In this document: positions 37,818 to 43,675 of the stretch, one piece after another
Layout of the letters: each line of letters starts with the position of its first letter
Numbering within the stretch: the first letter of the stretch is position 1
NCBI GenBank assembly: GCA_000004695.1
Contig: CM000155.2
Span: forward strand, 2,304,001 to 2,368,000
Direction: 5' to 3'
Length of the DNA: 64,000 nucleotides
Origin: Dictyostelium discoideum
Taxonomy: Eukaryota
Notes under the pieces: model-generated
What the model saw: only the letters and a program-made list of their open reading frames with translations
Told to the model about the DNA's origin: nothing
The model's database searches: none
Translations under genes and position numbers: made by a program

Positions 37818-38040
37818 TGTCCACATTGGTACTTGGACATTTTAATGTAAATTATAAATTAGAATAGGTTATTGTGTGAACAAAAAAAATAATAAAAAAT
37901 GTTTTTTTTAAAATTAATAATTAATAATTTTAAAAGAAAAAACAAAAATAAATAAATAATAAAACTTTTTTTTTGGTTGTAATATTTTTATGAACCAACA
38001 CTCTCACCCACAACTGAAATTATATTTTTAAAACTGTTGC
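37818..38040 (-). pseudogene. Truncated third copy of the small Cys-protein gene family. Only the first ~10 codons (MSKYQCGHFF) and the conserved ~200-bp upstream region survive.
   Basis: The reverse complement of 37810..37840 is ATGTCCAAGTACCAATGTGGACATTTTTTT, running into the poly(A) at 37800..37817. The upstream segment 37840..38040 aligns with 39620..39840 and 43260..43480 (…TGAACC(A/C)ACACTCTCA(C/T)CCACAACT(G/A)AAATTATATTTT…). Confidence 0.55.
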
Positions 38041-38204
38041 ACCACTCTCCAAGTGTTTTTATTTTTTTTTTTTTTTTTAAAAGCTATTTTGTGATTATTT
38101 TATATAATCTTAATATCTAATGTAATAAACTGAGCAACAAAATATGCTACCGGTTTTATGATACCCCACCAAAATACTTGTTATATTATGTAATTGAAGT
38201 GGAA

Positions 38205-38810
38205 AATGTTATTGCTTGTTGTGATCTGATTTCTTTTCCTTTGTTGTTAATCTTGCTGTCGCTGCCTCTTTATCTTTTTTAGATCTTTCTTCTTTGGGGG
38301 CATATCCTTTTAATATCATATCTAAAATTGGTGGAGTATTACCTTCTTCAATTGTCATCAGTTCTATCAATTGTTTTTGACCCAGTGAATGCTAAACAAC
38401 ATATATATTATTACTAACACTGCTTGTTATTGGAATTGATTCGATTGAAATTATTGCAACTATACAATAATCACCTGCTAATAAATTATCAAAGATAAGG
38501 TTGCCATCAGAATCTGTTGTTGTTTGAATTAAATTGATATTGATCTGTTTGAATTGTTGATGTTTAACCATTTCCACTGTTGGTTAAAGTAATTTCATAG
38601 AATGGTGTAACTGGGAAACATGGTTTAACAATACCTTCAACACTCGGTGAATCATCAGTACGTTTACCAGTATTGGGATGATCGAACCAAACACTATCGT
38701 TTACATTGAAAGTGGAATAAGATCGAGATTTGCATTTGTGGTTGATCGAGTAAATCGAATGCGTATTTACCATTTCATCTATGACAAGTCTGTGGTTGAT
38801 GTTCAAAATT
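38205..38810 (-). pseudogene. Decayed fragment (copy 1) of a gene encoding carboxypeptidase-regulatory-like / Cna-B-type beta-sandwich repeats
   Basis: ORFs 38564..38806 and 38392..38577 on the minus strand are consecutive pieces in different frames (...ITLTNSGNG | EMVKHQQFKQININLIQTTTDSDGNLIFDNLLAGDYCIV...). The D-x-(D/N)-G-x-(Y/F)-x-F-x-(N/D)-L-x-(P/A)-G-x-Y pattern is typical of CarbopepD_reg/Cna-B repeats. A frameshift plus an internal stop precede a C-terminal tail ...EEGNTPPILDMILKGYAPKEERSKK...*. Confidence 0.45.
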
Positions 38811-39103
38811 TAAAGTTATTTTTATTTATTTTAATTTTATTTTATTTTATTTTATTCATTAAATAACTCATTCTCTTTTTAATTCTTACATATTTCACTT
38901 TGTGAGTTTGTGTTTGAAAAAAAAAAATTATAAAAAAAAAAAAGTTGCAACTTTTTTTAATATAATTATTATTTTATTTTTTTTTTATTATTTTTTTATT
39001 TACTTTTTTTTTTTTTTTTTTTTTTTTTTTTTTAAAAAAATTACAAATAACCTCAATGACAATGTTAAAAAAAAAATGGATTAAAATATGGAAAAGTTAA
39101 ACA

Positions 39104-39613
39104 CTAACGAGTGCAGTTATCTGGTAAATGGTCAGCATCATAATCACATTTTGTTCCCTCTGGAAGATCACATAATCTTACTGGCTTTCCATTAAGAATT
39201 CCAACTTTGAAATTAATTAACACAAGTTTGTTTTGCATATTGATTGGGTCTACTTTTATTTCTTTTGCATCAAAAGTTTTGTATATTCCATCGATTGGGT
39301 CCTTTCTTCTTTCTTTTAATTCGAAAAAAATTTCATAAAAAATTAGGTCACTTTCTTTTGTTTGTTTAGCATATTCAAAGATTCTAGCATCTTCAAAATA
39401 TCTTTGTGTTGAAGTTAAAAATTGCTCCATTACTATTTTATAAATCTCTTTCATTTTTGTTTTACATTCTTCGTTGCAATAACCATTAAGCATTTTTGGA
39501 AAAAGGTTAGGGTTAACCAATTCATCATAATACACACGATAACCATATTTTTTTAAACTTTCAAGAGAATAATAATCATGTGGACATTTGTACTTGGACA
39601 TTATAATGGACAT
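39104..39613 (-). CDS. Small Cys-containing hypothetical protein (165-169 aa), member of a local paralogue family
   Basis: Complete ORF MSIIMSKYKCPHDYYSLESLKKYGYRVYYDELVNPNLFPKMLNGYCNEECKTKMKEIYK...KLVLINFKVGILNGKPVRLCDLPEGTKCDYDADHLPDNCTR. It is ~70% identical to ORF 42747..43244 and carries the same conserved upstream block. The conserved start is probably the internal MSKYKC (ATG at 39601). Confidence 0.7.
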   Translation of the reverse strand: MSIIMSKYKCPHDYYSLESLKKYGYRVYYDELVNPNLFPKMLNGYCNEECKTKMKEIYKIVMEQFLTSTQRYFEDARIFEYAKQTKESDLIFYEIFFELKERRKDPIDGIYKTFDAKEIKVDPINMQNKLVLINFKVGILNGKPVRLCDLPEGTKCDYDADHLPDNCTR

Positions 39614-40264
39614 ACCAGTAAAATTGAAATAAAATAAAATGTAATACTTTGTAAATTAAAAATTAGAATAGGTTATTGTGTGAATAAAAAAAATAATAAA
39701 AAAAATGTTTTTTCAAATTATTAATAAAAGAAAAAACAAAAATAAATGGATAATAAAACTTTTTTGCTTGTAATATTTTGTGAACCCACACTCTCACCCA
39801 CAACTGAAATTATATTTTTAACACAAAATTTCCAATATCAACACTGTTGTACAACCACTTACAAATTGTTTTTACTTTTTTTTACAAATTGTATTGAGCT
39901 CCAAAAATAGAATACTAGAAAAAAAAAACTAATTTATAGAAAATGAAAAATAAAGAAAGAAAATCATTCATTCATTCATTCCAACAGACTGATTAAAACA
40001 AAAACAACAACAACAACAACAAATAAATAAAATAATGAAAAAGGTCAGAGTCAACCAACTCTTCATAAAAAGTATAACTAAATTTTTGGCTTTTTTCTAT
40101 GTTATTTATTGATTTACCAATATATAGAAGTGGAAATGGAATATTTGGAGGGGAACCTGTATATGTATTTGGTTTTTGTGAGAAAATTAAATAAACACCT
40201 GGAAATGCACATTCTTTTGGAGGTTCTCCATCATCTAAAAAAGGAACACATATCCATATAAAGA

Positions 40265-42000: not shown

Positions 42001-42106
42001 TTGTGGGTCATGATTCTATGATTTCAAACTACGTTCTAAATTTAATGAACATTAATGAAAATTCTTCTTTTGAATTTTTTGAATCTTTATCTTTATCTTT
42101 ATCTTT

Positions 42107-42238
42107 ATAATTATTATTATTATTATTATTATTATTATTATTATTATTATTATTATTATTATTATTATTATTATTATTATTATTATTATTATTATTATTA
42201 TTATTATTATTATTATTATTATTATTATTATTATTATT
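42107..42238. repeat. (ATT)n microsatellite, ~44 units
   Basis: Perfect trinucleotide array. It generates the artefactual poly-Tyr ORF 42055..42327. Confidence 0.95.
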
Positions 42239-42746
42239 GTTATTATTTCATTTTTTCATATTTCTTTAATTTTTTATTTCATTTTTACGATCGTGGAACA
42301 AAATATAATGGTTCGAGCAAAAATTGAAAAAAAAAAAAAAAATTGGAAAAATTGGAAAAAAAAAAAAAAAAAAAAAAAAAAATTGGCGCTAAATGAAAGT
42401 AAATTGTTATTTATTCTCAAAACAATCTAATAACCTTTTTATAAATAGTTTTTTTATTGTTTTGGTTAAATTAATAGTTTTTAATATTTAAAAAAAAAAA
42501 AAAAAATAAAAAAATAAACAAAAAATAAAAAAAAGAAATCACACTATTTTTTTTTTAAATCAAAAATAAATTAAAAAATAAAATTAAAAAAAAAAAAAAG
42601 AGGCAAGGCTGATGGTTGAATTGTTGTTATAAAAAAAATAGATAAAAAACATTGATATTTATTTATTAAATTTGGATATTTGTGAAAAAAAAATAAGGAT
42701 TGAGAATGATACAAAAAAAAACCTTTTTTTACCTAAAGTTGAAACA

Positions 42747-43244
42747 CTAATGAGTGCAGTTATCTGGTAAATGGTCAGCATCGTAATCACATTTTGTTCC
42801 ATCAGGAAGATCACATAATCTGACTGGCTTTCCATTAAGAATTCCAACTTTGAAATTTATTAACACAAGTTTATATTCCCTATCAATTGGGTCAACTTTT
42901 ATTTCATTTGAATTGATAAATTTGTATTTTCCATCGATTGGGTCCTCTGTTAATTCTTTTAATTCGAAAAATCTTTCATAATAAATAAGGTCACTATCTT
43001 CTGCTTTTTTAGCATATTCAAAGATTCTAGCATCTTCAAAATATCTTTGGGTTGAAGTTAAAAACTGTTCTATTGATATTTTATAAATCTCTTTCATTTT
43101 TGTTTTACATTCTTCGTTGCAATGACCATTTATCATTAATGGAAAACGGTCAGGGTCGAACAATATATCAAAATATAAACGATAACCATATTCTTTTAAA
43201 CTTTCAAGGGAAAAATCATCATGTTCACATTTGTACTTTAGCAT
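42747..43244 (-). CDS. Small Cys-containing hypothetical protein, paralogue of 39104..39613
   Basis: MLKYKCEHDDFSLESLKEYGYRLYFDILFDPDRFPLMINGHCNEECKTKMKEIYKISIEQFLTSTQRYFEDARIFEYAK...KLVLINFKVGILNGKPVRLCDLPDGTKCDYDADHLPDNCTH. Same conserved upstream region at 43260..43480. Confidence 0.7.
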   Translation of the reverse strand: MLKYKCEHDDFSLESLKEYGYRLYFDILFDPDRFPLMINGHCNEECKTKMKEIYKISIEQFLTSTQRYFEDARIFEYAKKAEDSDLIYYERFFELKELTEDPIDGKYKFINSNEIKVDPIDREYKLVLINFKVGILNGKPVRLCDLPDGTKCDYDADHLPDNCTH

Positions 43245-43675
43245 TTTAATGTATATTAATGAGTAAAATTGAAATAAAATGTATGTATTGCTTTGTAAAT
43301 TAAAATTTATAAAAGGTTATTGTAAAAAATAAAAAATAATAAAAAAATGTTTTTTCAAATTATTAATAAAAGAAAAAAATAAATAATTATTAAAAAAAAA
43401 AAAACTTTTTTTTGGGAGTATTTTTGTGAACCCCCACTCTCATCCACAACTAAAATTATATTTTCCAATCAACACTGTTTAACTGACCACTCGCATATGT
43501 TTTTTTAATAAAAAAAATTAAAAATTGAGGCACCAAAAATAGAAACTTAAATAATAGTAAAAAATTGAATAGATTTTAAATATAATAATGAAAAAAATTA
43601 TTTATTTAAATGTTCAACTTTTATATACTGGTAAATGAGTTATTAAAATAAAAATATTTCCGATCAACATGCGAA

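Follow-up and report, generated by a model that had tools for sequence, protein, structure and literature searches.

What history leaves a short stretch of DNA with three related copies of a small gene, the debris of a decayed neighbour and an inverted segment shared by two reading frames? This question is raised by an array of repeated units on chromosome 6 of Dictyostelium discoideum AX4, contained in 64,000 nucleotides (GenBank assembly GCA_000004695.1, contig CM000155.2, positions 2,304,001 to 2,368,000 of the forward strand) that were analysed as a whole and are referred to here as the window; coordinates are positions in the window unless another locus is named. We consider it likely that members of an orphan gene family form a birth-and-death tandem array here, which was remodelled by a retrotransposon targeted to a transfer RNA (tRNA) gene and by a templated patch.

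Repeat units and a split gene copy

The units lie on the minus strand and were numbered 1 to 3 along the array. Units 2 (38.2-39.97 kb) and 3 (41.25-43.6 kb) share the same order of parts, namely a promoter block of ~370 bp, an intron-less gene for a protein of 165 amino acids, an AT/TTA low-complexity spacer and a decayed downstream gene. We queried 34-46 kb against the whole window by self-BLASTN, and a repeat finder was run as well. Units 2 and 3 gave collinear same-strand matches between 39093-39972 and 42735-43606 (898 nt, 81.6%), between 38242-38353 and 41401-41506 (83.6%) and between 38351-38535 and 41800-41988 (79.2%). A partial copy at 37846-38034 matched both 39650-39824 (86.2%) and 43294-43464 (77.6%), and exactly three occurrences of the 30-nt sequence that ends the upstream block, CACTCTCAYCCACAACTRAAATTATATTTT, were counted against an expectation of zero. 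A sequence-only reading of this stretch had proposed a three-copy module and had named self-comparison as the way to check it; the self-BLASTN matches reveal this repeat structure, and the units are true duplicates. The AT/ATT simple repeats described in the same reading were recovered as a (TTA)48 microsatellite in the unit 3 spacer (42105-42247; (TTA)47.7 measured) and a T-rich run at 38972-39033. Segmental duplication evidently gave rise to at least three units, and the downstream genes of units 2 and 3 later decayed, a step that is equally apparent from the two copies.

Two of the three tRNA genes found in the window (ARAGORN and Rfam) bracket the array. tRNA-Ser(AGA) at 36655-36736 (plus strand; Rfam tRNA score of 61.5 bits) is the target of two retroelements, and tRNA-Ser(GCT) at 43716-43798 (minus strand) bounds the array and has no adjoining retroelement in AX4. 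The earlier suggestion of a hotspot beside two tRNA genes holds for instability in a general sense, but only one of the two genes is adjoined by retroelements. Local G+C content in the window ranges from 11 to 38%, in line with the D. discoideum genome.

The third copy had been read as truncated at 37.8-38.0 kb. It is indeed partial, but it is not simply truncated: coding sequence resumes beyond a retroelement and only then is lost to a deletion. The start codon (ATG at 37841-37839) and the upstream promoter block of unit 1 occupy 37828-38075 (minus strand), and codons ~9-33 are found at 36787-36863 (minus strand), which is 88% identical to 43155-43230 and 89% identical to 39525-39587 in the self-BLASTN comparison. 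Homology ends beyond codon ~33, 50 bp from tRNA-Ser(AGA). Between the two pieces lies a 5'-truncated element of 954 bp (36864-37817, plus strand) without long terminal repeats (non-LTR), consisting of an ORF2 tail that is open from the first base, a run of A34, a 108-nt 3' module and a terminal A18. Its ORF2 product ends with a CX2C...HX4C zinc-finger motif, CKICGHLFRDPYSHLFTLC. The element is flanked by a perfect 10-bp target-site duplication, ATGTCCACAT, with its left copy at 36854-36863 and its right copy at 37818-37827, within unit 1 codons 5-8; once 36864-37827 is excised, which takes out the insert together with one repeat, the sequence is again collinear with units 2 and 3. The insertion at 36864 interrupts unit 1 after codon 8 of its coding sequence, and its distance downstream from the 3' end of tRNA-Ser(AGA) (36736) is 127 bp.

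The opposite flank of tRNA-Ser(AGA) (35988-36625, minus strand) holds another ORF2 tail, likewise truncated at its 5' end, with a CX2C...HX4C finger and, after it, A70 on its own strand. The frame opens at ~36625, 30 bp from the 5' end of the tRNA gene (36655), and ends at 36052, with the T70 run at 35988-36057; the end of the element, whose boundary is approximate, lies ~30-50 bp upstream of tRNA-Ser(AGA). It is probable that C-module sequence of this element continues to about 35837.

TRE3 and TRE5 are non-LTR elements with poly(A) ends and a zinc-finger domain in ORF2; TRE3 integrates ~100 bp downstream and TRE5 ~50 bp upstream of tRNA genes, and both types are present at 13% of tRNA genes (PMC5006619). 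Judged by position, architecture and the visible zinc-finger motif, the inserts appear to be a TRE3-type element, with a terminal A18, 5' truncation, a 10-bp target-site duplication and an ORF2 finger at the expected side and distance, and a TRE5-type element on the upstream side. Like the described elements, they are 5'-truncated, end in A-runs, carry the ORF2 finger and sit one on each side of the same tRNA gene, with a target-site duplication at the downstream element. Unlike what is described for TRE3 (PMC5006619), this insertion was not harmless but interrupted a copy of a protein-coding gene. We conclude that a TRE3-type retrotransposon drawn to a position ~100 bp downstream of tRNA-Ser(AGA) split unit 1 after codon 8 and that a deletion removed all of unit 1 past codon ~33.

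Several smaller observations concern this part of the locus. In the ACTFIR assembly (L004), one of three to which AX4 was compared, a copy beside tRNA-Ser(AGA) keeps codons ~39-133 and lacks the 5' end; as AX4 unit 1 retains codons up to ~33, the two would be different deletions of one complete ancestral copy. The ACTFIR gene model at L004 10840-11205 (P0028, ACTFIR_008896) combines the middle of a small-gene copy, a KITSF tandem repeat and antisense tRNA-Ser(AGA) (...STSAGFEPAPPKGSDF); it is an annotation artefact, yet it shows the ancestral extent of copy 1. The segment 35837-36028, just past T70, recurs at 85% identity beside both ACTFIR tRNA-Ser genes (L004 8134-8324 and 12237-12426) and probably represents a TRE5 3' C-module, in which case TRE5 occupancy of tRNA-Ser(GCT) would vary between strains. 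The first codons of copy 1 (37818-37841) are palindromic, ATGTCC...GGACAT, with an ATG-initiated frame on both strands, whose plus-strand arm is no longer the same in copies 2 and 3 (39578-39601 and 43221-43244), where it has diverged. A B-box-like sequence, GGTTCGAATC, at 43680-43689 (minus strand), 27-36 nt downstream of tRNA-Ser(GCT), resembles the extra 'ex-B' box of many Dictyostelium tRNA genes. The third tRNA gene, tRNA-Glu(CTC) at 61116-61187, is flanked (58-63 kb) by unusually G+C-rich kilobases (0.34-0.38), which may be further tRNA-associated retroelements.

The inverted patch and its donor

Between units 2 and 3, a convergent open reading frame (ORF) on the plus strand (40265-40777) encodes a Glu/Lys-rich product of 170 amino acids, with a 15-nt repeat (11.4 copies) followed by a Gly/Ala-rich hydrophobic stretch. 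Its beginning shares an inverted segment with the decayed downstream gene of unit 3: self-BLASTN aligned 40259-40303 with 41336-41381 over 46 nt (95.7%, E = 2e-13), so that the inverted 45-nt segment reported earlier is present. That report had interpreted it as a piece of the pseudogene that was carried to the start of the 40265 ORF by local inversion and duplication, in the same scenario in which the small genes encode fast-evolving, secreted, disulfide-rich proteins of a Cys-knot-like type. The match itself is genuine, but the alignment of the pseudogene tails points to the opposite direction of transfer. The unit 3 tail has a 59-nt insert (41334-41392, minus strand) between GGAACTAC and AGCAACAAC, of which the 46-nt match is the part still visible, while the tails of unit 2, of D. 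cf. discoideum (L001) and of the ACTFIW assembly have an empty site; in ACTFIW, GGAACTAC is directly followed by ACCAACAA. The same 59-64 nt lie within the open Glu/Lys-rich frame of D. cf. discoideum (...TWEKIKNWGKGELELAGLIL...), where homology extends ~15 nt further upstream than in AX4. The empty sites and the in-frame donor copy indicate that the segment belongs originally to the Glu/Lys-rich gene, from which it was copied into the unit 3 tail; the additional homology in the donor gene and the absence of the segment from three other pseudogene tails likewise argue that it moved in the direction opposite to that of the inversion scenario.

A 59-nt stretch near the 5' end of the Glu/Lys-rich coding sequence was thus evidently copied, in inverted orientation, into the pseudogene tail of unit 3. 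The junctions share the microhomologies TAC and AGCA with the donor, and this could reflect templated repair or template switching at 3-4-nt microhomologies. The case at hand resembles known templated insertions by template switching: a 59-nt inverted copy came from ~1 kb away, both junctions show microhomologies of 3-4 nt, and the empty sites are clean. It differs in that the mechanism is read here from the junction anatomy only.

The donor frame has itself been altered. Its ATG in AX4 is in frame only because one G is missing from a GGGG run (40259-40270), which both the D. cf. discoideum gene and the 59-nt patch retain intact. Since the sequence upstream of 40259 is unrelated, this position marks a rearrangement breakpoint, and the gene may be truncated at its 5' end and have acquired this start codon only recently. 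Compared with D. cf. discoideum, the proportions of non-synonymous and synonymous differences give a pN/pS of 0.44, and the frame is kept through three in-frame indels. The ORF is decayed in ACTFIW and absent from the ACTFIR locus, and its status as a gene is uncertain. Protein searches returned only low-complexity matches, and the exact 170-residue product was not in the protein collection. The automated D. cf. discoideum model of this gene starts at the plus-strand ATG of a copy-1-like fragment (L001 9596). Adjoining the breakpoint where the Glu/Lys-rich ORF begins, an open frame on the minus strand (40020-40258; DDGEPPKECAFPGVYLIFSQKPN...LLYIGKSINNIEKSQKF) weakly resembles a GIY-YIG nuclease (PF01541, E = 0.022, sub-threshold). 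Its part 40090-40258 is 91% conserved beside the copy-2 orthologue in ACTFIW (L003 10832-10998); in the D. cf. discoideum locus no match was found.

Small genes, decayed neighbours and promoter blocks

The two complete small genes are DDB_G0293026 (copy 2; 39104-39601, minus strand), which was characterised by homology search, substitution rates and expression lists, and DDB_G0293162 (copy 3; 42747-43244, minus strand), an exact match to XP_629274.1 / Q54CE5. Each encodes 165 amino acids followed by a stop; without it, the minus-strand ORFs span 39107-39601 and 42750-43244. The close paralogy seen from the sequence alone stands, and the ~70% protein identity given for it is corrected to a measured 77%. 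The two AX4 copies match each other with E = 1e-80, and the match to a D. purpureum protein (P0014) has E = 2e-40. A word-indexed search of 5.8 billion proteins returned 14 close relatives, each of which belongs either to the D. discoideum complex or to D. purpureum (54% identity), and a profile search (HMMER) of 1.84 billion cluster representatives returned 18 proteins at E <= 1e-3. A comparison with other Dictyostelids had been suggested as a check, and it yielded homologues in D. purpureum and further Dictyostelium species: all identified family members belong to D. discoideum, D. cf. discoideum, D. purpureum, D. firmibasis or D. dimigraforme, and all are named "hypothetical". AX4 paralogues at other loci include DDB_G0268832, DDB_G0293518 and DDB_G0288733. 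The small genes are genuine genes of an unnamed, Dictyostelium-only family. A full-text literature search gave no mention of the gene identifiers, and an AX4 gene-context look-up had no gene on record with the DDB_G0293162 product. Existing annotation lists the genes as hypothetical proteins; in the literature that could be searched, there is no description of the family, of its apparent orphan fold or of its presence/absence polymorphism.

No Pfam match was found in the small proteins or in any of 17 family members, and no PDB sequence matched the family profile at E <= 10. AlphaFold2 was unusable with 11 close sequences (predicted local distance difference test score, pLDDT, of 51); an alignment of 17 diverse members was used instead and gave a mean pLDDT of 84 and a predicted template modelling score (pTM) of 0.75. 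The predicted structure, a confident model, would comprise short N-terminal helices, a 28-residue helix and two beta-hairpins; it has no fold match and is an apparent orphan fold. Three residues are invariant in the 17 sequences (C42, C46 and M50), and P35, K47, K49 and D71 are at least 90% conserved. The core motifs FP...C-x3-C-K-x-K-M-K, YF-x-D-A-K/R-I and VG-x-x-NGK-x-VRLC are all found in both AX4 copies.

These data also bear on the proposal of a secreted or Cys-knot family. In its favour, six Cys align in the AX4 pair (positions 6, 42, 46, 144, 152 and 163, as had been noted) and in D. purpureum, and paralogues show elevated ratios of non-synonymous to synonymous substitution rates (dN/dS, 0.5-1.3). 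Against this, the N-terminus (MLKYKCEHDDFSLESLKEY) has no hydrophobic segment, with a maximum Kyte-Doolittle value of <= 0.49 (11-residue window) in the first 35 residues, and by this hydropathy measure there is no signal peptide. The proteins are hydrophilic (grand average of hydropathy of -0.6) and acidic to near-neutral (isoelectric points of 4.9 and 6.7). Conservation of six Cys is confined to the close subfamily and does not extend with knot spacing across the family: C6-x-H8 and the RLC144 cysteine are common family-wide, the two C-terminal Cys are subfamily-specific, and C42 and C46 are the only invariant ones. The model, helical with small beta-hairpins, predicts no knot. Together with the direction of the patch, this leaves the combined scenario of secreted Cys-knot-like proteins and local inversion very unlikely. 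The small proteins are instead probably soluble, acidic and intracellular, as far as their sequences tell, and C6, H8, C42 and C46 might tentatively be assigned to a metal site.

Downstream of each complete small gene lie pieces that are homologous between the units and have coding-like G+C. In unit 2 (38209-38806, minus strand) they comprise a prealbumin-like motif, DSDGNLIFDNLLAGDYCIV, an HPNTGKRTDD piece and an EEGNTPPILDMILKGYA tail in three frames; in unit 3 (41250-42030, minus strand), two prealbumin-like repeat motifs, DSDGNPIFDNLLAGD and TNENGKYALKDQVSGSYCF, and a tail, with stops and frameshifts. All three motif instances show the strand-turn pattern DxDGxYxFxNLxxGxY, or more generally D-x-(D/N)-G-x-(Y/L/P)-x-F-x-(N/D)-(L/Q)-x-x-G-x-Y, which appears in two separate repeats of the decayed gene, and the tails share EEGNxPPILDMILKGYA. 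Stops and frameshifts had been noted in both AX4 copies and were confirmed; in D. cf. discoideum, as in both AX4 units, the frames switch and hold stops. The label CarbopepD_reg-like attached to these pieces is not supported, as the Pfam matches are sub-threshold only: NOMO_3rd (1.3e-4), SdrD_B (2e-3) and CarboxypepD_reg (0.12) in unit 2, and SdrD_B (3.7e-3) and CarboxypepD_reg (0.21) in unit 3. The scores fall short of the gathering thresholds (CarboxypepD_reg 13.1 and 12.4 bits against 32.3, SdrD_B 18.7 and 17.9 against 29.7, NOMO_3rd 22.4 against 27). The weak matches (NOMO_3rd, SdrD_B, SpaA and CarboxypepD_reg) all fall into one group, the prealbumin-like repeats. The pieces can fairly be described as a decayed gene that carries prealbumin-like repeat motifs. 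It resembles prealbumin/transthyretin-like repeats (CarboxypepD_reg PF13620, SdrD_B PF17210, NOMO_3rd PF23193) in carrying the motif in two repeats, and differs in matches far below gathering score and in consisting of pseudogenes for which no intact parent was found. Among the 5.8 billion proteins searched there was no intact parent gene, and the sole relative is a model of the same pseudogene in another strain that was spliced around its defects.

Could the small ORF and the downstream pieces instead be exons of one longer spliced gene? Automated strain models of such a fusion exist (P0003, P0004, P0009 and P0010), units 2 and 3, like other assemblies, retain the order from small ORF to downstream pieces, and the coding-like G+C of the pieces would fit an exon. 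On the other hand, the stop after ...NCT(H/R/G) is conserved in four of four intact ORFs, so that every model must splice around it, and the D. purpureum orthologue is a stand-alone ORF of 153 amino acids with nothing similar downstream. The models are mutually inconsistent, the pieces are spread over three frames and interrupted by in-frame stops in all assemblies examined, and their only database homologue is another such model. Since the stop codon is conserved and the D. purpureum orthologue stands alone, we regard the fusion models as unlikely to be real, and a single spliced gene as slightly less probable even than the Cys-knot scenario. The models concerned, in GCA_054859235.1, GCA_054859355.1 and GCA_054859385.1 (P0003, P0004, P0009, P0010 and P0017), splice past the stop or around pseudogene frameshifts.

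For the small genes, dN/dS by the Nei-Gojobori method is 0.28-0.34 against D. purpureum (dS about 1), 0.53 for the AX4 pair and 0.5-1.3 for other paralogue pairs; the value for the AX4 pair, a check that had been proposed before, is that of a family that evolves fairly fast. Between the D. cf. discoideum paralogues, positive selection was not significant (dN/dS of 1.34, with 10 synonymous and 60 non-synonymous differences). Change is unevenly distributed along the gene: pN is 0.05 in codons 40-80, which hold C-x3-C-K-x-K-M-K, and 0.012 in codons 125-165 (VGILNGKPVRLCDLP), compared to 0.18 in the other two segments, which drift almost neutrally, and pS is 0.15-0.24 throughout. The stop position is the same in all four intact ORFs, two in AX4 and two in D. 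cf. discoideum, each of 165 codons. Both AX4 genes are listed in UP_Hr07_gradual and UP_Hr08_gradual for filter development (Rosengarten et al. 2015, Additional file 7), which indicates that both copies are transcribed and developmentally regulated and answers the earlier question of their expression.

We give very little credence, and less than to a spliced fusion, to the view that these are chance or dead ORFs in a module of non-functional duplicated junk. The lack of an intact copy at the ACTFIR locus, the low or near-zero expression of the relatives DDB_G0288733 (labelled pseudogene) and DDB_G0268832, and dN/dS values that approach 1 among close paralogues would agree with it. It is opposed by a dN/dS of ~0.3 at a dS of ~1 against D. 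purpureum, by two segments almost without amino-acid change at normal synonymous change, by conserved ORF length, by invariant residues in the family-wide profile and by the developmental regulation of both AX4 genes.

Self-BLASTN and alignment place the upstream block of unit 2 at 39602-39972 (minus strand) and that of unit 3 at 43245-43606 (minus strand), and the G/C-containing end of the block stands out in AT-rich DNA. In unit 2, a paired G-box-like sequence, TGTGGGTGAGAGTGTGGGT (39784-39802), lies on the gene sense strand 183-201 bp upstream of the DDB_G0293026 ATG; in unit 3 the pair is partly degenerate. The paired pattern has two matches in the window against 0.02 expected. With the GBF element defined as (T/G)G(T/G)G(T/G)G(T/G) (PMC2257962), unit 2 contains the paired element, and the motifs suggest that induction at 7-8 h could run through these sites under GBF control. 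Similar features are known from the sigN family (PMC2257962), which also consists of small Dictyostelium-restricted proteins in local clusters of diverged paralogues, induced in multicellular development from shared promoter regions with paired G-rich boxes that match the GBF element. It differs in timing, with 7-8 h listed for the small genes here and 10-12 h for sigN, and our searches, which included no dedicated comparison, suggest no sequence relation of the small proteins to SigN.

Least probable of all is that the end of the block is instead a promoter of the Dictyostelium upstream sequence element (DUSE) type for a plus-strand, Class I-like small non-coding RNA: ACCCACAA in units 1 and 2 is one mismatch from the consensus [AT]CCCA[AT]AA (PMC3188802) and is followed by ACTGTTG...CCACT and T-runs, but its CCC core is lost in unit 3, its spacing to the putative RNA is ~20 nt in one unit and 43 nt in another where a DUSE sits ~60 nt upstream, neither the 11-nt Class I motif CCTTACAGCAA nor a terminal stem was seen, and Rfam at gathering and permissive settings (E up to 5) matched only tRNAs, and on these grounds (variable spacing, core loss, no CCTTACAGCAA motif, no Rfam match) the idea was rejected.

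Variation between assemblies and its implications

The locus differs in each of the four assemblies, although the flanking isoleucyl-tRNA synthetase gene is 96-97% identical between assemblies. AX4 has two intact copies and one fragment. ACTFIW (L003) has three intact copies, one fragment and a Skipper-like LTR element, and ACTFIR (L004) has no intact copy and two fragments within the 2.6 kb between its two tRNA-Ser genes. D. cf. discoideum (L001), where the neighbouring genes are different, has two intact copies, one disrupted copy and one fragment. The four assemblies thus present four architectures with 0-3 intact copies and differing gene order, and array members are 81-90% identical between assemblies. 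This range of intact copies indicates that the small genes at the array are dispensable; the array is dispensable and in flux. The "small rearrangement hotspot" of the sequence-only reading is accordingly upheld as to structural instability, but not as to its account by local inversion. The Skipper-like element of ACTFIW is a gene of 1228 amino acids with reverse transcriptase, RNaseH, integrase and chromodomain regions that lies inside the array (L003 16597-20486); it adjoins the decayed Glu/Lys-rich copy, and an automated gene model merges both.

Several points speak against parts of the account given here. The G-box pair is perfect in unit 2 only and degenerate in units 1 and 3, and the case for it is made from motifs only. 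Divergence of the upstream blocks is close to the synonymous rate, and selection is not needed to explain their similarity. RNA-seq reads of 87%-identical paralogues could partly cross-map. Pfam zf-RVT matches of the inserts are sub-threshold, and their naming as TRE elements follows from position, architecture and the visible zinc finger. In flanking genes, identity to AX4 is only ~96-97% for assemblies that carry the name D. discoideum, and a "strain" may represent a cryptic lineage. The metal site is a tentative idea.

On the reading that we favour, a birth-and-death array remodelled by a retrotransposon and a templated patch, the three-copy module, the truncated copy and the inverted 45-mer all follow from ordinary processes, namely tandem duplication, decay, tRNA-targeted retrotransposition and templated insertion. 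Unit 1 provides a concrete case in which a TRE3-type element, usually regarded as harmless near tRNA genes, disrupted a coding sequence, and the gene that was hit was redundant. For annotation, chimeric models of a small gene and pseudogene debris will inflate or distort orthology tables and family-size counts. It may further be speculated that the protein family is structurally novel, limited to group-4 Dictyostelium, induced at aggregation and housed in a presence/absence-polymorphic array with fast turnover. We regard this full combination as improbable; if true, the 0-3 intact copies, the variable segments and paralogue dN/dS of up to 1.3 would be a signature of social conflict, self/non-self discrimination or defence, not of housekeeping. 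The analysis defines a Dictyostelium-only family that has a confident predicted structure, is developmentally induced and is presence/absence polymorphic, and this makes it a cheap target for knock-out.

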